Shown here piece after piece: positions 1 to 10,905 of a DNA stretch of 11,937 nucleotides (the first letter of the stretch is position 1; every line of letters begins with the position of its first letter). Source of the DNA: Candidatus Heimdallarchaeota archaeon. GTDB taxonomy: Archaea; Asgardarchaeota; Heimdallarchaeia; Heimdallarchaeales; Heimdallarchaeaceae. Under the pieces are notes generated by a model, which saw nothing but the letters and a program-made list of their open reading frames with translations, was not told where the DNA came from and ran no database searches. The translations under genes were made by a program, and so were the position numbers. Location of the stretch: the NCBI GenBank assembly GCA_021399345.1, contig JAAFKI010000172.1:1-11937 (forward strand), in the 5' to 3' direction.

Positions 1-657
1 GCAGGATATCTCAATTACGATAGTTTTCATACAACTCATGGAAGATCAATTCCTTTTGCAATAGGGTTGAGTGTAACAGATCCAGAAAGAAAAGTTATTG
101 TAATTTCGGGAGATGGGGATCTTTTTGCTATAGGTGGAAATCATTTTATCCATGCAGCTAGAAGAAACGCCAATATTACAGTTGTTTGTGTTAATAATTT
201 CAATTATGGTATGACAGGAGGTCAAGCAGGTCCAACTACATACGCGGGTCAATTTCAGACAACCGCTCCTTATGGGTCACTAGAAGAGCCATTCAATATT
301 CCTAATCTTGCTGCAAGTTGTGGTGCAGTTTATGTTGCAAGATATACTGCTTTAGATGTTAGAAGAGTAAAGGAAGCCTTTTCTGAAGCAATAGCTAAAA
401 ATGGGTTCTCTTTCGTTGAAGTTTTAGGTAGCTGTCCTACAACTTATGGTCGTCGAAACCAATTAGCTGAAGGGAAGAAGATTCTGGAATTTTTTGCTGA
501 AAAAACTGTTCTTAACCACGATGCAGACACTAGAGACGTTCGAATTGACAAGAACAGTCCTATAATAGTTGGTAAATTTGTTGATATTGAAGATAAACCA
601 ACTCTAACAGATAATTTACTAGCGCTTCAGAGAGTTAGTCAAGCTAAGAAGGGATGA
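1..657 (+). CDS. korB: 2-oxoacid:ferredoxin oxidoreductase subunit beta (TPP-binding), probably 2-oxoglutarate synthase; 5'-truncated
   Basis: Frame is open from base 1 (AGYLNYDSFHTTHGRSIPFAIG...), so the TTG at 67 is not the start. Has the KorB-type HTTHGR motif, the TPP/Mg motif GDGD...NN, YGMTGGQ and CPT. Stop TGA at 655-657. Substrate is inferred from motif type and context. Confidence 0.9.
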   Translation, partial: AGYLNYDSFHTTHGRSIPFAIGLSVTDPERKVIVISGDGDLFAIGGNHFIHAARRNANITVVCVNNFNYGMTGGQAGPTTYAGQFQTTAPYGSLEEPFNIPNLAASCGAVYVARYTALDVRRVKEAFSEAIAKNGFSFVEVLGSCPTTYGRRNQLAEGKKILEFFAEKTVLNHDADTRDVRIDKNSPIIVGKFVDIEDKPTLTDNLLALQRVSQAKKG

Positions 658-661
658 TAAT

Positions 662-1210
662 ATGAGTAGAGTAGAAATTCGTTTTGCAGGTTTTGGTGGT
701 CAGGGAATAGGACTTATGGGGAGGCTCGTAGGTGAAGCTGTAAGCTTATTGGAAGAGGGAAAAAATTCTGTATTGACACAAAGCTATGGTCCAGAAAGTA
801 GGGGTGGAGCAAGTAGCACAGATGTTGTAATTGACGAAGGAGAAATCGATTATCCTAAGGCAACTGAACTGGATTACTTTGTCGTTTTGTCAGAAGAAGC
901 TTATCATAAGTATATTCCAAAACTCAAAGAAGGTGGAATTCTCTTTGTTGAAGAGGATTTAGTTACAATAGATGAAAATGCAAAGAAAGCTAAAAAGATA
1001 TTTAAAATTCCAGCAACTAAAATTGCTGAATCTCTTGGAAGCAGACTTTATGCTAACATAGCCATGTTAGGTTTCGTATGTGCTAACACAACAGACATCT
1101 TCTCTGAAGTATCTATGCTTACAATAATGAAAGAAAAAATCAAAGCAAGATTTGTTGAAAAAAATCTAATTGCTTTCCAAAAAGGTATGGAGTATAAATC
1201 AAACTCCTGA
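662..1210 (+). CDS. korC: 2-oxoacid:ferredoxin oxidoreductase subunit gamma
   Basis: IRFAGFGGQG and QSYGPESRGG motifs, plus late NIAMLG and N..AF..G motifs. Directly follows the beta subunit. Confidence 0.9.
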   Translation: MSRVEIRFAGFGGQGIGLMGRLVGEAVSLLEEGKNSVLTQSYGPESRGGASSTDVVIDEGEIDYPKATELDYFVVLSEEAYHKYIPKLKEGGILFVEEDLVTIDENAKKAKKIFKIPATKIAESLGSRLYANIAMLGFVCANTTDIFSEVSMLTIMKEKIKARFVEKNLIAFQKGMEYKSNS

Positions 1211-1231
1211 AAATAAGACGAAGGTTTGGAA

Positions 1232-1681
1232 ATGTCTACACAAAAGAATACAGAACTGGAAGAATTCGAACCAAACATAATTGGTTTCTTATGTAATTGG
1301 TGTTCCTACGCAGGAGCAGATCTCGCAGGAACTAGCAGAATCCAATATCCTCCTAATGTTAAAATCATCAAGGTAATGTGTTCTGGTAGAGTAAATCCAA
1401 TGTACATAATTAATGCATTTCAGCAGGGTGCTGATGGAGTTCTAGTCAGTGGATGCCACCCCGGAGATTGTCATTACACTAGTGGAAATTACTTAGCTAG
1501 GAGAAGAATCGCTACCATGAAAAAGCTACTGGAGTTTCTTGGTATTGAGCCTGATAGAGTAAGAATGACCTGGGTTTCAGCTGCTGAAGGTAGAAAATAT
1601 GCTGACGTCGTCAGAGAACTTACTGATGACATCAAAAAATTAGGTCCTATGACCAAATTTAGGAGGGAAAAAGAATGGTAG
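1232..1681 (+). CDS. mvhD: MvhD/FlxD-family [2Fe-2S] subunit
   Basis: FLCNWCSYAGADLAG, MCSGRV, GADGV, GCHPGDCHY and WVSAAEG motifs. ATG at 1232 preferred over TTG at 1226 because GAAGGT (1220-1225) is suitably spaced. Equivalent to flxD in this context. Confidence 0.95.
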   Translation: MSTQKNTELEEFEPNIIGFLCNWCSYAGADLAGTSRIQYPPNVKIIKVMCSGRVNPMYIINAFQQGADGVLVSGCHPGDCHYTSGNYLARRRIATMKKLLEFLGIEPDRVRMTWVSAAEGRKYADVVRELTDDIKKLGPMTKFRREKEW

Positions 1682-2661
1682 AGAACAAAGAACTAATCAA
1701 GGTTGTTGAGGAAACCGTTTCTCGAGATGACGTGAAATACGTTGTTGGTTATAAGAGAGGCACTTATGGTTTTCAAATCAAACCTGCCTTTGCTTATAGC
1801 GCTAAAGACGCAAAGGAGTTCTTTTACTCTCCATTATGTGCAAAGAATCTAGCTACTTATCCACTTCTTGAAGAAAAATTACCTTTAAGAAGAGGCGAGG
1901 AAGCAGAACATAAGAAGATTGGAATTGTTGTAAAGGGTTGTGACTCCCGTGCCATAATCCAAATCATTCAGGAAAAGGGATTAGAAAGGGAAGATGTTGT
2001 TTTAATAGGCATCCCTTGTAAAGGTGTAATCGACCCAAAAAAGATAGCTAAAAGATTTCCTAAACAATCAAAGTTTGTTGATGTTGAGGAAAATAACAAC
2101 GACGAATACATATTAGAAATAGGTGGAACAAGCCATAAAATCCCTAAAGACGAATTGCTTTCAGATGTATGTAAAAGCTGTGAATACCCAAATCCACTTT
2201 TATATGACATACTTATAGGTGAAGCTGAAGAAGAATTTCAACCTGAACACTTCAACAGAGTAGATGAATTAAAAGAAAAAACAATAGAAGAAAGATGGGA
2301 GTATTGGGAGAAGCATTTTCAAAATTGCATTCGTTGTTATGCATGTAGAGAAGCATGCCCACTTTGTTATTGTAAAACATGTATGGTTGATCTATTAGAA
2401 CCACAATGGGTCAGACGATCTGTAAATCTATCAGAAAATACTGCTTGGAACGTAATGCGTGCATTTCATCTTGCTGGCAGGTGTATTAGTTGTGGTGAAT
2501 GCGAACGAGCTTGCCCTGTTAACATTCCTCTAATGGAATTAAACAAGTTCGTTGAGAAAGAAGTTAAAGAGATGTTTAATTATACTGCTGGGCTCGATAC
2601 TGAAGAAAAACCATTCCTGGGAAGTTTTCGACCAGATGATCCGGAGGATTTCATTTCGTGA
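1675..2661 (+). CDS. flxC: FlxC-like Fe-S protein (FdhB/FrhB-related N-terminus, C-terminal 2x[4Fe-4S])
   Basis: KGCDSRA motif, CKSC, CIRCYACREACPLCYCKTC and HLAGRCISCGECERACP. SD AGGAGG at 1661-1666. Overlaps mvhD by 7 nt. Symbol assigned from position in an Flx-Hdr cluster. Confidence 0.8.
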   Translation: MVENKELIKVVEETVSRDDVKYVVGYKRGTYGFQIKPAFAYSAKDAKEFFYSPLCAKNLATYPLLEEKLPLRRGEEAEHKKIGIVVKGCDSRAIIQIIQEKGLEREDVVLIGIPCKGVIDPKKIAKRFPKQSKFVDVEENNNDEYILEIGGTSHKIPKDELLSDVCKSCEYPNPLLYDILIGEAEEEFQPEHFNRVDELKEKTIEERWEYWEKHFQNCIRCYACREACPLCYCKTCMVDLLEPQWVRRSVNLSENTAWNVMRAFHLAGRCISCGECERACPVNIPLMELNKFVEKEVKEMFNYTAGLDTEEKPFLGSFRPDDPEDFIS

Positions 2662-2670
2662 GGAATTAAA

Positions 2671-3708
2671 ATGGAACAACTAACATTACCAAAAGAAAAA
2701 TTACCTGAATTGCTTGGAGAGATTGGTTCTAAATTTGAACTGATTGGACCAAAGGAAGAAAATGGATTCTTAGCCTTCAGGAAAATAAATGATCCAAAAG
2801 AGGTCAATCTAGATATTTTACTTTCAAGAGTACCTCCTAAGTCTTTGATATTCCAACAAACTGAAACTCTCTTTACATATGCCAAAGGAAAAGATTCTAA
2901 GGTTCAAACTCCAAAAATTGATGAATCAGTAAGAGTAATTTTTGGAATTCGCCCATGCGATGCACGAGGATATGATATCATAGATCCAGTTTTTATGGGA
3001 AAAAAAGAGGGCGATTATATTGATCCATTTTATACAAAGAAAAGAAATAGAAGCATTCTGATTGGTCTAAGTTGTAATGAACCAGATACCAACTGTTTCT
3101 GTACATCATTTGATGATAGTCCAGCGAATACTAAACATGTAGATATTCTATTTACAGATATAGGCGACACATATTTTGTTGAAGTTGTGACAGAAAAAGG
3201 AGAAGATCTAATCAAAAACCTAAGCAAAATCTTCTCAAAGGCAACTGAAAAAGAAAGTACTATCAGAAAGGAGACAGAAAGGGCAGCAATTAAGGCAATC
3301 TCCCGAAAGATGAACACAGAAGGAACTGTTGAAAAACTAGACAAAATGTTTGATCACGAATTTTGGGTAGAAACTGCTAGAAGTTGTATTGGTTGCGGGA
3401 TTTGTACTTATTTGTGTCCGACATGCCATTGCTTTGATATTCAGGATGAGAGCACTTTGAAACTAGGTGGGAGAGTACGTGTATGGGATTCATGTATGTA
3501 TGAAGAATATACCCATCATGCATCAGGTCATAATCCTAGACCCTCAAGAATGAATAGAGTAAGAAATAGAGTTTATCACAAATTCAACTATTTCCCCAAA
3601 AATGATGGGATCTTTGGATGTACTGGTTGTGGTAGATGTATTGATTATTGTCCTGTTAATATTGATATAATTGAAGTAATTGACAAAGTGAAGGAGGCCA
3701 ATATATGA
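2671..3708 (+). CDS. flxB: FlxB-like Fe-S protein (AsrA/sulfhydrogenase beta family)
   Basis: PPK..F, FGIRPCD, C......CFC, CIGCGICTYLCPTCHCF, WDSC and GCTGCGRCIDYCP motifs. Confidence 0.85.
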   Translation: MEQLTLPKEKLPELLGEIGSKFELIGPKEENGFLAFRKINDPKEVNLDILLSRVPPKSLIFQQTETLFTYAKGKDSKVQTPKIDESVRVIFGIRPCDARGYDIIDPVFMGKKEGDYIDPFYTKKRNRSILIGLSCNEPDTNCFCTSFDDSPANTKHVDILFTDIGDTYFVEVVTEKGEDLIKNLSKIFSKATEKESTIRKETERAAIKAISRKMNTEGTVEKLDKMFDHEFWVETARSCIGCGICTYLCPTCHCFDIQDESTLKLGGRVRVWDSCMYEEYTHHASGHNPRPSRMNRVRNRVYHKFNYFPKNDGIFGCTGCGRCIDYCPVNIDIIEVIDKVKEANI

Positions 3709-4547
3709 CAGACGAAAACCCCTACCAACCTTGGATAGCGAAAATTATCAGTATAAAAGAAGAAGCTAGTGGAGAAAGAGCAATAAAAACATTCAGACTT
3801 GAATTCCAAGATGAGGAAGTCAAAAAGAAGTTCACCTTCCTACCTGGTCAATGTATTATGGTAAGTGTATTTGGAACAGGTGAAAGTATGTTCGCTATAT
3901 CTTCATCACCCACTCAAAAAGATTACATAGAAGTTAGTGTAATGAGATATGGTAAACTTACCAAAGCACTGCATCTAAAAGAAGAAGGGGAATTAGTTGG
4001 AGCAAGGGGTCCATATGGGAACAGCTTCAAAATCGATGAATGGAAAGGCAAGGATATCCTCTTTTTAGGTGGAGGAATAGGACAAGCTCCACTTCGTTCT
4101 GTGATTAATTACTGCAAAGATAACAGAAAAGATTATGGAAAAATAGATATCGTTTATGGTGCGAGAACTTCTCTTGACCTCTGTTATAAGGATGAATTTG
4201 CAGAAATGAGTAAGAAGGATGATTTAAGCATTCATCTTTCTATAGATGTTGAAGAAGAAGGTTGGGATCAGTTTGTAGGGTTTGTTCCAGATAATTTGAA
4301 GAGACTTAATCCTTCTCCAAAAAATACAATAGCTATAACTTGTGGTCCCCCAATAATGATTAAATTTGTAATTCAAAATCTCTTGGAACTTGGTTTCAAA
4401 GAAGACCAAGTTTACACAACTTTGGAAATGAGAATGAAATGTGGTATAGGCATATGCGGAAGGTGTAACATAGGAAATCTCTATGTCTGCAAAGATGGAC
4501 CAGTATTCTCATATGATCAAATAAAAGATATTCAAGGAGATATGTAA
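3705..4547 (+). CDS. flxA: FlxA-like FAD/NAD(P)-binding [2Fe-2S] flavoprotein (AsrB/PyrK/sulfhydrogenase gamma family)
   Basis: PGQ, RGPYGN, GGGIGQAPLR, YGART, CGPP and MKCGIGICGRC...CKDGPVF motifs. ATGA overlap with the upstream gene; SD AAGGAGG at 3691-3697. Confidence 0.88.
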   Translation: MTDENPYQPWIAKIISIKEEASGERAIKTFRLEFQDEEVKKKFTFLPGQCIMVSVFGTGESMFAISSSPTQKDYIEVSVMRYGKLTKALHLKEEGELVGARGPYGNSFKIDEWKGKDILFLGGGIGQAPLRSVINYCKDNRKDYGKIDIVYGARTSLDLCYKDEFAEMSKKDDLSIHLSIDVEEEGWDQFVGFVPDNLKRLNPSPKNTIAITCGPPIMIKFVIQNLLELGFKEDQVYTTLEMRMKCGIGICGRCNIGNLYVCKDGPVFSYDQIKDIQGDM

Positions 4548-4562
4548 AGGCGTGATAATATT

Positions 4563-6530
4563 ATGAAGATTGGAGTTTATTTATGCGAGTGTGGATCTAA
4601 CATTGCAAGTACTGTTGATGTTGAGGATCTAGCAGAACAAGCTAAAGAATTTCCAAATGTAGAAGTCAGCAGAGTTTACAAATATGTGTGTTCTGACCCC
4701 GGTCAACTATTGATAAAACAGGATATTGAAGAAAAACAACTAGATAGAATTGTAGTTGCAGCCTGCTCTCCAAGAATGCATGAACCTACATTCAGGGCAG
4801 TGTTAGAAGACATGGGATTGAATCCTTATGTCTTAGAAATCGTCAATATCAGAGAACAAGTTTCTTGGGTTCATGACGATAAAAAAAAGGGTACAGTTAA
4901 AGCAGCCTCATTGCTTAAAGGTGCAGTTTTAAGAGCTTCTTTAATGCACCCCTTAGAAAGGAAAAAGGTTGGCGTAACACCTAATGCACTCGTGATAGGT
5001 GGTGGTATTGCAGGTATCCAAGCTTCTCTTGATTTAGCTGATATGGGATTTGATACTACACTTGTTGAAAAATCTGCAACAATTGGTGGAAAAATGTCTC
5101 AGCTTGACAAAACATTTCCAACATTAGATTGTTCACAGTGTATTTTAAGTCCTAAAATGGTAGATGTTAATCGCCATCCAAATATTGACTTACTTGCACT
5201 AAGTGAGGTTGTAGAAGTTGAGGGATATGTTGGAAATTTCAAAGTAAAGATTAAGAAAAATCCTACTTATGTATTAGCAGATAAATGTACTCTTTGTGAT
5301 GATTGTGTTCCTGTCTGTCCAGTTATAGAACACGATGAATATAATCAAGGATTTTCTCCAAGAAGAGCGATTTACATACCATATCCTCAAGCAGTCCCAG
5401 CATCATATCTTATAGATCCTAATTCTTGTTTAGGTATAGAACCGCTCATTTGTTCAAAATGTAAAGATGTTTGCGGACCAGAAGCAATAGATTTTGATAT
5501 GAAACCAGAGATAATTGAAAAAGAAGTTGGTGCCATAATTGTAGCAACAGGATATGAACCCTATCCTATAGAAAATATTGGTGAGTATGGTTATGGAACA
5601 ATTCCAGATGTGATTTCTGGTTTGGACTTTGAGAGAATAGTTTCTGCAAGTGGTCCAACTGATGGTACAATTCGTCGTCCATCTGATGGGAAAATACCTA
5701 AAACAGTTGTTTTCGTCCATTGTGCAGGATCTCGTGACCCAAGCAAACATCTACCTTATTGTTCGAAAGTTTGTTGTATGTATGCAACCAAACATGCTTT
5801 ACAGTACAAACATTTAGTGCATGATGGAACAGCTATAAACTTCTTCATTGACATAAGAACTGCAGGAAAGGATTATGAAGAATTCTACCAAAGAGCAGCT
5901 GAGGAAGACCAAGTTATATATATAAGAGGTAAAGTTTCTGAAGTTTTCCAAGATGGAGATAGACTTCTAGTAAAAGGCGCTGATACTCTAACAGGAGAAA
6001 CCGTTGAACTTCATGCTGATTTAGTAGTTCTAGCCACAGGTTTAATGCCCAGTGCAGGAACTAAAGAAATTGCAAGTCTTCTAAACCTATCAGTTGGTAT
6101 GAACGGTTTCATCAGGGAAGCACATCCAAAATTAAAGCCTGTAGATACTGCAATTGCAGGTGTTTTTGTTGCAGGAACTGCTACAGGACCAAAAGACATT
6201 CCAGAAACAGTTTCAAATGCTAGTGGAGCAGCTTCTAGAGCCGCAGGAATATTATCACAAGATGAATTAGAAATTGAAGGAACTGTTGCTCAGGTAGATG
6301 AAGACCTATGTCGAGGTTGTGGTCTATGTGCTGAAGCTTGTCCTTATAGCGCAATTGAAATTAAAGCAATAAATAAATACGGGCACGCTTTGCGGGTAGC
6401 TTTTGTAAATGAAGCAATGTGTAAAGGATGTGGTTCATGTGCCGCAGCTTGTTTGAACGGCGCAATTAATCAGCTAGGATATACAGATAGTCAAATTCTT
6501 GCCCTGATAGGGGCATTGGGAGAGGGATAA
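4563..6530 (+). CDS. hdrA: Heterodisulfide reductase subunit A (bifurcating FAD/Fe-S subunit)
   Basis: N-terminal VYLCECG, YVCS and AACSPR; Rossmann GGGIAG; DKTFPTLDCSQC; inserted ferredoxin domain; CAGSR...YCSKVCCMYATK; GPKDIP; C-terminal 2x[4Fe-4S]. Canonical length (655 aa). Confidence 0.97.
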   Translation: MKIGVYLCECGSNIASTVDVEDLAEQAKEFPNVEVSRVYKYVCSDPGQLLIKQDIEEKQLDRIVVAACSPRMHEPTFRAVLEDMGLNPYVLEIVNIREQVSWVHDDKKKGTVKAASLLKGAVLRASLMHPLERKKVGVTPNALVIGGGIAGIQASLDLADMGFDTTLVEKSATIGGKMSQLDKTFPTLDCSQCILSPKMVDVNRHPNIDLLALSEVVEVEGYVGNFKVKIKKNPTYVLADKCTLCDDCVPVCPVIEHDEYNQGFSPRRAIYIPYPQAVPASYLIDPNSCLGIEPLICSKCKDVCGPEAIDFDMKPEIIEKEVGAIIVATGYEPYPIENIGEYGYGTIPDVISGLDFERIVSASGPTDGTIRRPSDGKIPKTVVFVHCAGSRDPSKHLPYCSKVCCMYATKHALQYKHLVHDGTAINFFIDIRTAGKDYEEFYQRAAEEDQVIYIRGKVSEVFQDGDRLLVKGADTLTGETVELHADLVVLATGLMPSAGTKEIASLLNLSVGMNGFIREAHPKLKPVDTAIAGVFVAGTATGPKDIPETVSNASGAASRAAGILSQDELEIEGTVAQVDEDLCRGCGLCAEACPYSAIEIKAINKYGHALRVAFVNEAMCKGCGSCAAACLNGAINQLGYTDSQILALIGALGEG

Positions 6531-6544
6531 AGAGGTGTAGAGAA

Positions 6545-6955
6545 ATGTCTTACGAATATTTAAAATTTGGAAAAGAAGAGAAAGACTTCATTGCAAAAAT
6601 AGAAGAAATTTCAGGACAAAATATCTACAGTTGCTATCAATGCGGTAAGTGTTCTGCAGGCTGTGCTTTTAGTGATAAAATGGATAGATCAGTTAGTCAA
6701 CTTATTCACCTTATTCAAATCGGGCAAAAAGAAAAAGTTCTGAAATCAAATACTCATTGGGTTTGTTCTAGTTGTTTAACTTGCACTGTTAGATGTCCTC
6801 GAGAAATTGATGTTGCAGCATTAATGGAGGCAGTACGAGAATATAGCTTGAGAGAGGATTATGAGAAAGTTATAATTTCTGAAATTTCAAAAGAAGCTTT
6901 AGATAAGCTTCCAAATATTGCTTTAGTCAGCAATTTTCGCAAAAAAACAGGATGA
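6545..6955 (+). CDS. hdrC: Heterodisulfide reductase subunit C (short form, 2x[4Fe-4S])
   Basis: CYQCGKCSAGC and WVCSSCLTCTVRCP motifs. Lies between hdrA and hdrB. SD GAGGTG at 6532-6537. Confidence 0.92.
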   Translation: MSYEYLKFGKEEKDFIAKIEEISGQNIYSCYQCGKCSAGCAFSDKMDRSVSQLIHLIQIGQKEKVLKSNTHWVCSSCLTCTVRCPREIDVAALMEAVREYSLREDYEKVIISEISKEALDKLPNIALVSNFRKKTG

Positions 6956-6963
6956 TCTAGCAA

Positions 6964-7881
6964 ATGGTACAATACTCTTACTTTCCAGGATGTAATCTAA
7001 AAACAAATGCTAAAGGTTTTGAAGAAACTGCTATAGCTGTCAGTAAGAAATTAAATGCTGAACTAGTTGAAATGCCGAATTGGAATTGCTGTGGAACTGT
7101 ACATACTCTTACCTCAGACAATATCATGAAACGTATTGCACCTATTCGAGTATTATCGAGATCAAGAAAACATATTGAAACACTTGAAGAATCTCAAAAT
7201 CAAGTAGTTACTCTTTGTTCTATGTGTAATAGTACTCTAAAAATTGTCAATAATGAAGTTAAGAAAGATCAAGAAATTTTAGATAAGATTAATTATCAAT
7301 TAGAAGAAGATGAAGAAACTTACGAACCAGATATGGAAGTAAAGCATTTCTTGGAAATTCTTCGAGATACAATAGGATATGAAAAAATCTCTGAAAAAGT
7401 GGTCAATCCGCTTGAAGGTCTGAAAATTTCACCTTACTATGGTTGTATGTTATTACACCCTGAAGAAGCTAAGATTGACGATGAAGAGATGCCTGATGTT
7501 TTAGAAAGTTTAGTTGAAAGTTTAGGAGCAGAGCTAGTAATGTCTCCTTTATTCAAATTCTGTTGTGGCTCCTATCACATAGTAGATCAAGAAATTATTG
7601 TTTCTTCCCAAGTTGAGAAAATTGTTGAAGCTGCAAAACAAAGAGGAGCAAATGCACTAGTACTTGCTTGCCCTTTATGTGCTTACAACATAGACCAACA
7701 GCAAAAAGCTATGGCAAAAAATACTGCAGGAAAATCACCTATTCCGGTGTTTTACTTTACTCAGTTGATGGCTATAGCAATGGGAGAACCAGTGAAAATC
7801 AATCACTTTAATGATCATTTCATAAATCCTGAACCTCTCCTCAAGGAATTAGGATTAATTGGGAGGAAAAAAGCAAAATAG
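6964..7881 (+). CDS. hdrB: Heterodisulfide reductase subunit B (two CCG domains)
   Basis: Two complete CCG motifs: YFPGC..WNCCG..CSMC and YYGC..FCCG..CPLC. C-terminal IPVFYFTQL. Confidence 0.95.
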   Translation: MVQYSYFPGCNLKTNAKGFEETAIAVSKKLNAELVEMPNWNCCGTVHTLTSDNIMKRIAPIRVLSRSRKHIETLEESQNQVVTLCSMCNSTLKIVNNEVKKDQEILDKINYQLEEDEETYEPDMEVKHFLEILRDTIGYEKISEKVVNPLEGLKISPYYGCMLLHPEEAKIDDEEMPDVLESLVESLGAELVMSPLFKFCCGSYHIVDQEIIVSSQVEKIVEAAKQRGANALVLACPLCAYNIDQQQKAMAKNTAGKSPIPVFYFTQLMAIAMGEPVKINHFNDHFINPEPLLKELGLIGRKKAK

Positions 7882-7893
7882 AGGGTTAGAAAA

Positions 7894-8610
7894 ATGTCAA
7901 AGACCAAAACAAAAGAAGAGAATGAACCCCTTACGGTGAAAATATATATTATGGGCTCTGCGCATGAAGTACCCGCATCTCTAACAATAATGAAAGCGAT
8001 GGAGTATGCAGGTTTTAAAATTAAAAGGGGTGCTGGATGTAGAGCTGGATTTTGTGGAGCTTGTGCAACATTATATCGAAAAGCAGGTGACTACAGAATA
8101 TATGCTGCACTAGCATGTCAGACACAAGTTGAAGATGGAATGGTATTAACTCAATTACCATTTGTACCTGCTCCTAAGGCAATCTACGATGTGGATTCAC
8201 TTAAACCTACAGCGAGTTCAATCCTGAAATATTATCCTGAAGTAGCAAGATGTTTAAGTTGTAACGCTTGTTCAAAAGTGTGCCCTCAGGAAATTCAAGT
8301 TATGGACTATGTGCAATATAGTCTTCAAGGTCAGATTGATAAAGCTGCAGAGGTGTCTTTTGACTGTGTTCAATGTGGTTTATGTGCGATTAGATGTCCT
8401 GCAGAAATTCCACAGTATCATGTTGGTATGCTTGCTAGAAGACTACATGGAAAATACAACACTAGCACTCCAGAAACTCTAATTGAAAGAGTTGAAGAAA
8501 TTGAAAACGGTGTCTTTGAGGAGGGTTTTAAAGAACTGATTTCTCTCTCAAAGGATGGTTTAAAGAAACGATATACTGAACGAGATTTCGTTGATCAGAA
8601 AAAGGCGTGA
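7894..8610 (+). CDS. Fumarate reductase/succinate dehydrogenase-type Fe-S subunit, TfrB-like, lacking CCG domains
   Basis: [2Fe-2S] motif GCRAGFCGAC...LAC and two four-Cys motifs (CLSCNACSKVCP, CVQCGLCAIRCP). Adjacent to an FrdA/SdhA-family flavoprotein. Confidence 0.85.
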   Translation: MSKTKTKEENEPLTVKIYIMGSAHEVPASLTIMKAMEYAGFKIKRGAGCRAGFCGACATLYRKAGDYRIYAALACQTQVEDGMVLTQLPFVPAPKAIYDVDSLKPTASSILKYYPEVARCLSCNACSKVCPQEIQVMDYVQYSLQGQIDKAAEVSFDCVQCGLCAIRCPAEIPQYHVGMLARRLHGKYNTSTPETLIERVEEIENGVFEEGFKELISLSKDGLKKRYTERDFVDQKKA

Positions 8611-8615
8611 TAAAA

Positions 8616-10280
8616 ATGAAGATGATAAGAGGTTATCCTGAAGATATGCGAAAAAGCATAGATAATGTTAATAAAACAAGAAACAAGCGTATCGACCAAA
8701 TTATAGAAGATTTATCTCTAAAAGAACGAAAAGAAGTTCTTGACAATTTTCACCCAGATTATAATCCAAAATTTAAAAGGAATATTTCTTGGGGAGGTAA
8801 CAAAGGTGATAATGTACCCAATGAAGTTGCAGATGTTATTGAAGCTTATCCAATGGTAAATCCAGATGATATAGATTTAAACCAAATCGATTATGATGTT
8901 AATATATTAATCATTGGTGCAGGCGGTGCTGGTACCTCAGCAGCCTTGTGGGCCAACTACTCTGGAGTACCAAAAGAGGAAATTCTGCTTGTTACAAAAC
9001 TCAGACTTGGAGATTGCAATACAGTCATGGCGCAAGGTGGTATTCAAGCAGCTGATCGTCCTGTAGATAGTCCATTAATTCATTATATGGATGCAATAGG
9101 AGGGGGACATTTCGAGAACAAACCTGAGCTGGTCAAAGCCTTAGTTAGTGATGCCCCGAAAATTATCAAATGGCATAAGGACCTTGGAGTAATGTATGAT
9201 TGTACTGAAGATGGTAGTTTTATTGAGAATCCTGGAGGTGGTACATCAAGAAATAGAATGCATTGTTCTAAGGATTACACTGGACTGGAGATGTTTAGAA
9301 CATTAAAAGATGAGATAATAAATAAGGAAATTCCTTATCTAGAATTTTCTCCCGCTGTTGAGCTTATTACAAATGAAACTGGAGGAATAACAGGAGCTGT
9401 TCTATATAACATCGAAACAAAACAATACTTTGTTGTTAGAGCTAAAACAACCATCTTAACCACAGGTGGTTTTGGAAGACTTCATGTAGCAGGTTTTCCA
9501 ACATCTAATCACTATGGTGCAACTATGGATGGTGTAGTTATGGCTTATCGTGCAGGTGCTAAATTACGAGATTTAGATGCTACACAATTCCATCCAACTG
9601 GTGCAGCATTTCCAGAACAAATTGTAGGACTACTGATTACTGAAAAAGTTCGAAGTTTAGGAGGTCAAGTTCTTGGACGAAATGGGGAACAAATTTGTTA
9701 TCCATTGGAACCCAGAGATGTTGAAGCATCATCTATAATCAAATGTTGTGCAGCAACTGACAATTATATTGAAACTCCAACCCAAATGAGAGGAGTCTGG
9801 CTAGATAGTCCTTTAATTGAGGAAATCAAAGGAAAAGGTACAATTATGAAAAATCTTAGTGCTATGCATCGAATGATGAATAGGTTTGATATCGATATAA
9901 CCGTAGATCCAATTCTTGTTTATCCTACCTTACATTATCAGAATGGTGGTGTAGAGCATGATGAGAGTTGTCACACATCTCTTAAGGGACTTTTAGCAGC
10001 AGGGGAAATTTCCGGAGGAGTTCATGGTAAGAATCGTCTTATGGGTAATTCTCTTTTAGAAATAAATGTATTCGGAAGAAGGGCTGGTATCACAGCAGCT
10101 AATGAATACAAGAAAAAGAGTACCACAGGAAAACTTTCTCTTGCTCATGTTCATAAATCAATTAAGGCTCTTGATGCTCTAAATCTAAAAGATAAAAGAT
10201 ATTCTCCAACCATTTTACCAGAGTATAGAAGTGACGTAGTTAGAGACAGATTAGTTCAGTTATATGAAGAATCACTCTAA
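8616..10280 (+). CDS. Fumarate reductase/succinate dehydrogenase-family flavoprotein, TfrA-like
   Basis: IIGAGGAG, NTVMAQGGI, TTGGFG, QFHPT, LITEKVR, PRD, LHYQNGG and AAGE...HGKNRLMGNSL: the dicarboxylate-site His/Arg/Thr/Glu residues are present. ATG at 8616 preferred over GTG at 8607 because AGGCGTGA then acts as its SD. Confidence 0.9.
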   Translation: MKMIRGYPEDMRKSIDNVNKTRNKRIDQIIEDLSLKERKEVLDNFHPDYNPKFKRNISWGGNKGDNVPNEVADVIEAYPMVNPDDIDLNQIDYDVNILIIGAGGAGTSAALWANYSGVPKEEILLVTKLRLGDCNTVMAQGGIQAADRPVDSPLIHYMDAIGGGHFENKPELVKALVSDAPKIIKWHKDLGVMYDCTEDGSFIENPGGGTSRNRMHCSKDYTGLEMFRTLKDEIINKEIPYLEFSPAVELITNETGGITGAVLYNIETKQYFVVRAKTTILTTGGFGRLHVAGFPTSNHYGATMDGVVMAYRAGAKLRDLDATQFHPTGAAFPEQIVGLLITEKVRSLGGQVLGRNGEQICYPLEPRDVEASSIIKCCAATDNYIETPTQMRGVWLDSPLIEEIKGKGTIMKNLSAMHRMMNRFDIDITVDPILVYPTLHYQNGGVEHDESCHTSLKGLLAAGEISGGVHGKNRLMGNSLLEINVFGRRAGITAANEYKKKSTTGKLSLAHVHKSIKALDALNLKDKRYSPTILPEYRSDVVRDRLVQLYEESL

Positions 10281-10341: not shown

Positions 10342-10905
10342 ATGAAAAACACATACATCTTTCTTCGACATGCATTGACAACAATAGACAAAAGTCTACC
10401 TGCAGAAAAGTGGGTAATATCAGAAGCAGGAATAGAAGAAGTATGTAATGTAGTTTCCTCTGGAAAATTTGACGATGTAGATGTAATAATCTCTTCCTCG
10501 GAAAAGAAAGCAATTCAAACAGCTTTTTACCTATCAGAACGAATAGAGAAGGATATTAACTTAAATCCTAACCTAAAGGAATTAGATAGAGGGCAAGAAT
10601 TTATTGAGACTCAAGAAGATTATGAAACGAAAGTCTGGAGAATTTTCGATAACCCATCAGAATGTAGTTTCGGTTGGGAAACTGCTGAAAATGCGCTAGG
10701 AAGATTCAAAAGGGGGATATCGCGAATCGAAAACACCCATTCTAATAAGAAAATCTTCAGTGTTAGTCATGGAATTATTTTAACTCTATTCTTTGGAGAT
10801 CTTTTAGGATTAAAAAACGAAGAACTATTTCCAAGATGGAAGAAACTGAAATTCTGTGCATGGGGAACAATACTAGATGGAAAAGTAGATAGAGATATAG
10901 TTTAA
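10342..10905 (+). CDS. Histidine phosphatase (phosphoglycerate mutase-like) family protein
   Basis: N-terminal IFLRHA (RHG-type phospho-His motif), SS...AIQTA, LKE, E..E and C-terminal VSHG. Confidence 0.85.
   Translation: MKNTYIFLRHALTTIDKSLPAEKWVISEAGIEEVCNVVSSGKFDDVDVIISSSEKKAIQTAFYLSERIEKDINLNPNLKELDRGQEFIETQEDYETKVWRIFDNPSECSFGWETAENALGRFKRGISRIENTHSNKKIFSVSHGIILTLFFGDLLGLKNEELFPRWKKLKFCAWGTILDGKVDRDIV

Follow-up and report, generated by a model that had tools for sequence, protein, structure and literature searches.

What serves as the electron acceptor of the heterodisulfide reductase complex HdrABC in organisms other than methanogens is a long-standing question, and it arises in a particular form on contig JAAFKI010000172.1 of a Candidatus Heimdallarchaeota archaeon, an Asgard genome (assembly GCA_021399345.1) that is 88.6 % complete. 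The window analyzed here is this entire contig of 11,937 bp. In it, genes for HdrC and HdrB are directly followed by genes for an iron-sulfur (Fe-S) protein and a flavoprotein that resemble FrdB and FrdA of fumarate reductase, and the Fe-S protein lacks CCG domains. An earlier note on this DNA had posed two options for the link between these modules, a direct electron wire or an unknown thiol carrier. On balance, we think that the eleven co-oriented genes running from a 2-oxoacid:ferredoxin oxidoreductase to the flavoprotein encode one soluble, electron-bifurcating fumarate reductase system. Direct wiring is favored over the thiol option because synteny and co-inheritance are conserved, the electron input module is swappable, HdrB and HdrC occur only at this locus in the genome, and a strong interface is predicted; this support is in silico and falls short of proof. 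To a wider proposal we would give about even chances, namely that HdrABC has fumarate as its physiological high-potential acceptor in organisms without coenzyme M (CoM) and coenzyme B (CoB) or DsrC, and that the HdrB non-cubane clusters are there a mere relay to a docked FrdB-like subunit.

A CCG-less Fe-S subunit and its flavoprotein partner

The Fe-S protein (7894..8610, + strand; 238 aa; Fer2 and Fer4 families) has twelve Cys residues, arranged as a plant-type 2Fe-2S motif (C49/C54/C57/C75) and two full CxxCxxCxxxCP motifs (C120/C123/C126/C130 and C158/C161/C164/C168). Its N-terminal [2Fe-2S] domain aligns with the N-terminus of the SdhB encoded in the same genome (hhalign probability 71 %), and its dicluster domain with the HdrC family (hhalign probability 95 %, E 4e-8). 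As the earlier note had observed, the protein contains no CCG string, and it has no match to PF02754; this absence of CCG holds across the family. The label TfrB given there did not hold up: the protein scores 39.9 bits against a cut-off of 385 for NCBIfam model NF004898, and the two C-terminal CCG domains of TfrB are not present. Assignment of the flavoprotein as TfrA was rejected likewise (NF004900, 305.9 bits against a cut-off of 718). A search for longer forms of the Fe-S protein returned no fusion to a CCG domain, which is weak evidence; the sole longer form found, a 638-aa metagenomic protein (P0121; 49 % identity over 98 % of the query), joins the Fe-S subunit to a FAD_binding_2 domain.

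The flavoprotein gene (8607..10280, + strand; 557 aa; PF00890 FAD_binding_2, 205.8 bits) opens at a GTG at 8607, with a 4-nt overlap with the Fe-S gene. Since the closest homologues have 554 aa and the family consensus begins 'MKLIRGYPE', translation probably starts at the ATG at 8616 instead. Residues H329, T345, E346, R349, R370, H443 and R477 align with E. coli FrdA H232, T244, E245, R248, R287, H355 and R390; all seven catalytic and dicarboxylate-site residues of FrdA are thus kept, placing the protein in the SdhA/FrdA superfamily. Consistent with this placement, FrdA and SdhA folds were the best Foldseek matches to an AlphaFold2 model, with E. coli FrdA (1kf6_A, E 3e-24) at the top; the model is of moderate confidence (mean pLDDT 70.5) and served fold assignment only.

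The position of the His that links flavin adenine dinucleotide (FAD) in complex II-type enzymes is occupied by N138, an Asn invariant in 14 family members, which points to non-covalent FAD, and no C-terminal Succ_DH_flav_C domain (PF02910) was matched. Lacking both covalent 8-alpha-histidyl FAD and Succ_DH_flav_C, the flavoprotein falls outside the complex II type. In SdhA and FrdA, non-covalent FAD disfavors succinate oxidation, and the predicted cofactor state fits the reductive direction. The protein also carries a conserved, family-specific N-terminal extension of ~95 aa and has Gly where Frd and Sdh have Phe in the ...FGG... motif. None of the NCBIfam equivalog models for Frd, Sdh, Tfr or NadB scores it above cut-off. 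For L-aspartate oxidase NadB, which we rejected as an identity, the score is 249 bits against 452.75 (TIGR00551), and Gly stands at the position of the amino-group binder, E. coli Glu121; nor is the flavoprotein a stand-alone enzyme like NadB.

Among species-representative genomes, at least 598 stretches encode a flavoprotein of this family, at 52-91 % identity, with archaeal and bacterial members sharing 52-62 %. Judged by their sequences, we regard the Fe-S protein and flavoprotein as a distinct, highly conserved FrdAB-like family.

HdrB and HdrC

HdrC (6545..6955, + strand; 136 aa) matches Fer4_8/17 and TIGR03290 (65.7 bits), and its conserved Cys residues C30/33/36/40 and C74/77/80/84 provide two [4Fe-4S] sites. 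HdrB (6964..7881, + strand; 305 aa) has two CCG domains (PF02754 twice) with two non-cubane [4Fe-4S] sites, and its ten cluster Cys residues (C10, C42, C43, C85, C88, C161, C200, C201, C236 and C239) are conserved in 35 family members. It aligns over its full length with five solved HdrB sequences (HMMER E 1e-30 to 2e-39) and so belongs to HdrB; its 156 bits stay below the cut-off of 345.15 for the methanogen CoB-CoM HdrB equivalog TIGR03288. We rejected the type E Sdh/MFR subunit SdhE as its identity (NF042965, 130.4 bits against a cut-off of 500). Unlike in SdhABE[F], HdrA, HdrC and Flx genes stand alongside HdrB, and no hydrophobic or SdhF-like gene is found in the cluster. HdrB is the only CCG protein of the operon and ends 12 nt upstream of the Fe-S gene, both as the earlier note had reported, and the pair of HdrB and HdrC is found at this locus only in the genome.

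One other CCG protein is encoded in the genome, a 397-aa HdrD-like protein with a 4Fe-4S dicluster and two CCG domains (contig C182 19,482-22,518; L081:5483-8519). Its gene is followed by those for an FAD_binding_4 dehydrogenase of the D-lactate/glycolate oxidase type and for the lipoyl carrier GcvH, a possible protein-bound dithiol carrier.

Conserved linkage and co-inheritance of HdrB with the Fe-S subunit

Linkage was counted in the best 80 loci related to the flavoprotein, 69 of which extend at least 3 kb upstream. The Fe-S gene adjoins the flavoprotein gene in 72/80, and hdrB lies directly upstream of the Fe-S gene in 39/80 (34 of the 69 with sufficient upstream sequence). Within 10 kb, hdrB is present in 57/80 loci, mvhD in 42/80, hdrA in 38/80 and an oxoacid oxidoreductase in 34/80. 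The pairing of Fe-S gene, flavoprotein gene and hdrB is far beyond chance, and it spans bacterial and archaeal phyla, with an order that varies and a content that stays constant. FlxCBA occupies the segment between mvhD and hdrC in this operon and in some bacteria, whereas Thorarchaeota, Thermoplasmata, Acetothermia and others have MvhG, MvhA and HycI of a [NiFe] hydrogenase there; the block of hdrCB, Fe-S gene and flavoprotein gene is unchanged when this input module is swapped.

Among 121 sampled Asgard genomes, 35 carry the Fe-S gene, and a high-scoring hdrB (at least 203 bits) abuts it in 31/35; the genomes without the Fe-S gene show weaker HdrB matches only, of at most 168 bits. All five genomes examined that have no hdrB near the locus (5/5) carry an hdrB of the family type elsewhere (334-369 bits with the family profile). 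A second cluster in the Heimdallarchaeota genome itself (contig C21 ~55,260-69,210; L087:3264-17208) has the order mvhG-mvhA-mvhD-flxC-flxB-flxA-hdrA-hdrA(1117 aa)-hycI-mvhD, followed by a gene for a rhodanese-domain protein resembling CoA-disulfide reductase. The cluster thus combines hydrogenase and Flx input modules and two HdrA genes with no hdrB or hdrC. Given the co-inheritance and this cluster without hdrBC, HdrCB travels with the Fe-S/flavoprotein pair and not with HdrA and the input module.

Two bacterial metagenome-assembled genomes show other surroundings of the pair. In one from Dehalococcoidia (L064:6952-9181), a LutB-like protein (LUD domain and 4Fe-4S dicluster) precedes it in place of HdrC and HdrB, and upstream of the LutB-like gene lies a 342-aa open reading frame with a weak, 32-bit match to the HdrB family profile; from this locus, the CCG partner may be exchangeable. 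In one from Dehalococcoidales (L080:6994-9242), genes for malic enzyme and the alpha subunit of class I fumarase stand directly upstream of the pair, and no Hdr gene occurs within 10 kb.

Predicted docking of the Fe-S subunit on HdrB

The earlier note had proposed a complex prediction, and this yielded an interface. The Fe-S protein was modeled as the partner of HdrB and HdrC, each of the three chains being supplied as a 35-row alignment, in three runs and with three controls. The interface score ipSAE was 0.89 in 3/3 runs, against 0.01 for the best of the three controls. In calibration of the tool, that mark was reached by 58/80 solved complexes and by 2/110 mismatched pairs; since our own alignments were used and the job differs from the calibration, a pass supports binding and does not show it. 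The runs agreed in at least 97 % of contacts, with a partner pLDDT of 81-83.

The predicted interface comprises residues 106-128 and 137-147 of the Fe-S protein, including C120 and C123 of the first [4Fe-4S] motif, and residues 9-10, 13-14, 39-44, 55-62 and 112-116 of HdrB, among them two Cys residues of the N-terminal CCG set, C10 and C42. The C-terminal tail of HdrC (111-135) takes part as well, and the C120/C123 region of the Fe-S protein contacts this tail together with HdrB C10, W40, C42 and R62. The residues concerned are conserved across phyla: E36, W40 and R62 of HdrB are invariant, and P115, E116, R119, N124, K128, M137, D138 and G146 of the Fe-S protein are nearly so. The solved methanogen HdrB sequences have Ala opposite W40 and Pro opposite G44.

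The model would thus set the first [4Fe-4S] site of the Fe-S subunit against the N-terminal, distal non-cubane cluster of HdrB. In M. thermolithotrophicus HdrB, C42 and C81 ligate the distal non-cubane cluster (cryo-electron microscopy preprint, 10.64898/2026.08.18.745454). With the distal cluster thus held by the N-terminal CCG set, the predicted docking would extend the chain from HdrC through the HdrB clusters HB1 and HB2 into the Fe-S subunit, as a wire requires. This contact offers a concrete interface for mutation or cryo-electron microscopy.

Gene content and expression of the operon

Thirteen genes of the window lie on the + strand, and from 1226 to 10280 every intergenic gap is at most 15 nt or the genes overlap. 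The nearest homologues by name are from Heimdallarchaeaceae. The beta subunit of the 2-oxoacid:ferredoxin oxidoreductase (1..657, + strand; PF02775 TPP_enzyme_C, E 1e-35) is cut at its 5´ end by the contig end and is followed by the gamma subunit (662..1210, + strand; PF01558 POR, E 1.5e-33). For a full-length homologue of the beta subunit (L001), the top models are 2-oxoglutarate and 2-oxoacid ferredoxin oxidoreductase beta, all below cut-off, and the alpha subunit passes a generic 2-oxoacid model only, with the 2-oxoglutarate models below cut-off.

The electron input module follows, all on the + strand: MvhD/FlxD, the [2Fe-2S] connector to HdrA (1226..1681; PF02662 FlpD, 196 bits); a FlxC-like Fe-S protein with an FrhB/FdhB C-terminal fold and a 4Fe-4S dicluster (1675..2661; PF04432 and Fer4 families); a FlxB-like, AsrA/HydB-like Fe-S protein (2671..3708; PF17179 Fer4_22, NCBIfam ShyB/HydB/AsrA-like); and a FlxA-like NAD(P)H:FAD oxidoreductase with a [2Fe-2S] cluster (3705..4547; PF00175, PF00970, PF10418, NCBIfam HydG/AsrB-like). 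HdrA (4563..6530, + strand), in characterized Hdr complexes the electron-bifurcating flavin subunit, matches positions 1-641 of the HdrA2 model NF040770 at 828.6 bits, below the cut-off of 1100 for the form fused to MvhD. By domain content, the seven-gene FlxABCD-HdrABC set, as defined by Ramos 2015 in the summary given in passages of PMC6315080, is therefore present as one cluster.

Downstream of the flavoprotein gene come a gene of the histidine phosphatase family (10342..10905, + strand) and then a methyltransferase gene (+ strand). The histidine phosphatase gene trails the flavoprotein gene in loci of Heimdall- and Thorarchaeota (L001, L002, L004 and L049) and is doubled in L004 and L049.

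Short metatranscriptome contigs from two runs on one sample map to the oxidoreductase, mvhD, hdrA, hdrC, hdrB and flavoprotein genes at 90-100 % likeness, 6/18 of them at 99 % or more. They cover small parts and include no joint transcript, and the RNA libraries may contain DNA; they give no more than a weak hint of expression.

Searches for carriers and anchors, and a canonical succinate dehydrogenase

The earlier note had found no SdhC/D-type anchor encoded at the locus, and this holds: no cluster protein contains a transmembrane-like stretch (19-residue Kyte-Doolittle mean of at most 1.48, against 2.4-2.7 for E. coli FrdC and FrdD), and searches of the 88.6 %-complete genome gave no Sdh_cyt match. 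Its statement that the window has no DsrC-like gene extends to the genome, in which no DsrC (PF04358), and hence no DsrC substrate as in FlxABCD-HdrABC, was found. ComA (PF02679) was likewise not found in the genome, in a search that did not cover CoB biosynthesis. The genome search that the note had proposed thus returned neither of these genes, and one CCG protein besides HdrB, the HdrD-like protein described above. Across related loci, the cluster has no conserved carrier gene.

The genome does encode a canonical SdhA, with the FAD-linking His and the C-terminal domain, and an SdhB beside a class II fumarase (contig C77 28,645-32,502, minus strand; L082:3646-7503), and no Sdh_cyt anchor or CCG subunit for them was found anywhere in the genome. 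With canonical SdhAB in the same genome, the operon pair is a second, specialized enzyme.

Proposed path of electrons

In the system as we propose it, FlxABCD would oxidize NAD(P)H and deliver electrons to HdrA via MvhD, a step that would be driven by H2 in the relatives. The HdrA flavin would split the pair, sending one electron uphill to ferredoxin and the second downhill through the two [4Fe-4S] clusters of HdrC to the proximal and then the distal non-cubane cluster of HdrB. The CCG-less Fe-S subunit would take this electron straight from the distal cluster, lead it over its two [4Fe-4S] clusters and its [2Fe-2S] cluster, and hand it to the non-covalent FAD of the flavoprotein, where fumarate would be reduced to succinate. 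The HdrB clusters would act as a relay with no need of a diffusible thiol or disulfide, and the reduced ferredoxin could serve the neighboring 2-oxoacid:ferredoxin oxidoreductase. The gene content, cofactor motifs, conserved catalytic residues, linkage and predicted interface described above lead us to infer a physical complex that would use fumarate as substrate, move electrons in this direction and bifurcate them. Fumarate/succinate is a far stronger acceptor than the heterodisulfide by established potentials. Non-cubane clusters have been shown experimentally to serve as pure electron relays in the electron transfer flavoprotein (ETF):methylmenaquinone oxidoreductase EMO (10.64898/2026.08.18.745454).

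If the proposal is true, a thiol-free link to fumarate would let anaerobes conserve energy when they reduce fumarate, with no membrane or quinone involved, and would supply low-potential ferredoxin for reductive carboxylation. The annotation 'thiol:fumarate reductase' in Asgard metabolic reconstructions would then change; Asgard papers annotate the pair under this name.

Alternative explanations

Several points weigh against direct wiring and the fumarate reductase assignment. The literature searched contained no purification, assay or other biochemistry of any member of the family. HdrB keeps all ten Cys residues of the catalytic heterodisulfide site, and hdrB is not within 10 kb in 18/69 loci (23/80 overall). 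The expression of tfrAB in tubeworm symbionts deviates from that of the rest of the operon, according to passages of PMC11636981. With canonical SdhAB encoded next to fumarase, the operon pair is not needed for the tricarboxylic acid cycle step as such. The interface is a matter of model confidence, not a measurement, and the model may have reproduced, on the opposite half of HdrB, the contact known between HdrC and HdrB, because the dicluster domain of the Fe-S protein is HdrC-like and HdrB is pseudo-symmetric. The complete Cys set in particular, with both CCG sets intact, keeps thiol-mediated coupling alive, in which HdrB would reduce a disulfide on a small molecule or on a carrier protein, for instance one of the lipoyl/GcvH type or one resembling DsrC; in a variant, HdrCB, the Fe-S protein and the flavoprotein would form a four-subunit 'split Tfr' that oxidizes a thiol, with HdrA separate. 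Methanogen TfrB has the same domain set in fused form (the NF004898 layout), many loci show only hdrC, hdrB, Fe-S gene and flavoprotein gene with hdrA not in view, GcvH is encoded beside the HdrD-like protein, and the published models, in the passages searched, leave the option open (PMC6315080, PMC11636981). We nevertheless consider a thiol carrier unlikely. If one CCG protein binds HdrC on one side and the Fe-S subunit on the other, reduction and re-oxidation of a thiol would take place at the same site, which is redundant; neither ComA nor DsrC was found in the 88.6 %-complete genome, no carrier gene recurs in the cluster, and the predicted docking sets a [4Fe-4S] site against the distal cluster.

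The other alternatives seem less probable still. Flavin-based bifurcating complexes are reversible in principle, so the system could run backward, with succinate oxidation and reduced ferredoxin jointly reducing NAD+ (confurcation) during amino-acid or propionate catabolism; the adjacent oxidoreductase could provide the reduced ferredoxin, and a fermentative, heterotrophic lifestyle has been described for Asgard archaea (PMC9723677). The family-wide Asn in place of the FAD-linking His speaks against this direction, as do the His-containing canonical SdhA and its SdhB elsewhere in the genome, and succinate plus ferredoxin as donors would have a mean potential of ~-210 mV (our own estimate from standard potentials), well above NADH or H2; we think reverse operation improbable. 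About as little weight falls to a different flavoprotein substrate, such as L-aspartate or another unsaturated or 2-substituted dicarboxylate, whose conversion the Hdr module would then serve. Such a substrate would accord with the missed equivalog cut-offs, the absent C-terminal domain, the N-terminal extension and the Gly in the ...FGG... motif, but the seven FrdA residues are kept, the NadB Glu121 is absent, fumarase and malic enzyme genes adjoin in some lineages, and the published operon of a succinate producer includes fumarase (PMC7282089). Finally, gene neighborhood alone is weak evidence, and the loci without a nearby hdrB would suit two modules that are mere neighbors, coupled neither physically nor functionally. 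That we regard as very improbable, given the linkage across bacterial and archaeal phyla with variable order and constant content, the co-inheritance of HdrB with the Fe-S gene, and an interface prediction that is strong against its controls.

Comparison with known systems

Our preferred reading, a bifurcating complex wired to fumarate reductase, has precedents. Passages of Rubin-Blum 2019 (PMC6315080) describe a frdBA-hdrCB-korDABC-hdrA-flxDCBA cluster of the reductive tricarboxylic acid cycle in tubeworm symbionts (Ca. Endoriftia and the Escarpia symbiont) and in Thioflavicoccus mobilis, and propose as the link a thiol cycle or, alternatively, a complex whose bifurcated electrons go directly to 2-oxoglutarate:ferredoxin oxidoreductase (OGOR) and fumarate reductase. 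The passages searched of Mitchell 2024 (PMC11636981) put forward the same hypothesis and raise the same question of a direct or a thiol/DsrC-like link in tubeworm symbionts. Compared by gene list, not sequence, that cluster shares with the one described here a Kor-type oxidoreductase, FlxABCD, HdrABC and a two-gene, anchor-less Frd, and the hypothesis is the same, with NADH electrons bifurcated to ferredoxin/OGOR and to fumarate reductase. It differs in gene order, and here the host is an Asgard archaeon and ATP-citrate lyase is not in view. The tubeworm papers name the enzyme thiol:fumarate reductase, and the missing CCG domain is unmentioned in the passages searched.

The 'succinate operon' of Pseudoclostridium thermosuccinogenes combines fumarase, Flx-Hdr and fumarate reductase and has been proposed to couple succinate formation to ferredoxin reduction (PMC7282089, in passages citing the Koendjbiharie & van Kranenburg 2019 preprint). 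By gene content, it shares Flx-Hdr beside a two-gene Frd with our operon, whereas its host is bacterial and it has fumarase, not an oxoacid oxidoreductase; the organism is a cultured succinate producer, and the operon is transcribed (same passages). A 2026 survey, in the part searched, repeats the Flx-Hdr-Frd hypothesis.

Among characterized enzymes, Methanothermobacter TfrAB (Heim et al. 1998, as cited in passages of PMC8163825) is likewise soluble and anchor-less and pairs a flavoprotein with a [2Fe-2S]/2x[4Fe-4S] module and CCG-type clusters; its TfrB has two CCG domains of its own and oxidizes CoM-SH and CoB-SH, whereas here the CCG domains reside on the separate HdrB of an HdrABC set. MvhADG-HdrABC and FlxABCD-HdrABC of methanogens (PDB 5ODC/8RVU) and Desulfovibrio (Ramos 2015) share the domains and cysteines of HdrA, HdrB, HdrC and MvhD. 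They are known to pass electrons to CoM-S-S-CoB or DsrC, whereas the set described here has a fumarate reductase module attached and no carrier of this type was found for it. MetFV-HdrABC-MvhD of Moorella thermoacetica, as listed in passages of PMC5861303, likewise handles a high-potential acceptor through an extra reductase module with no free disulfide, the module being a methylenetetrahydrofolate reductase and not an FrdAB-like pair. EMO (10.64898/2026.08.18.745454) also has an HdrC-like and HdrB-like relay module with a flavoprotein docked on the CCG domain; it is membrane-bound and heme-containing with an altered distal cluster, whereas the ten Cys residues are kept here and the system is soluble. 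Hydrogenobacter thermophilus FrdABCDE (Miura 2008, cited in PMC13147460) was purified as a soluble, NADH-dependent and irreversible enzyme with an FrdA/FrdB core and extra electron-transfer subunits, and no ferredoxin coupling is reported for it in the passages searched. The arrangement described here therefore adds an Asgard archaeon to a group of systems that others have proposed before, and the hypothesis is not new. New here are the family-wide absence of CCG, the co-inheritance of an hdrB subfamily with the Fe-S gene, the swap of the input module, and the predicted docking site at the distal non-cubane cluster.

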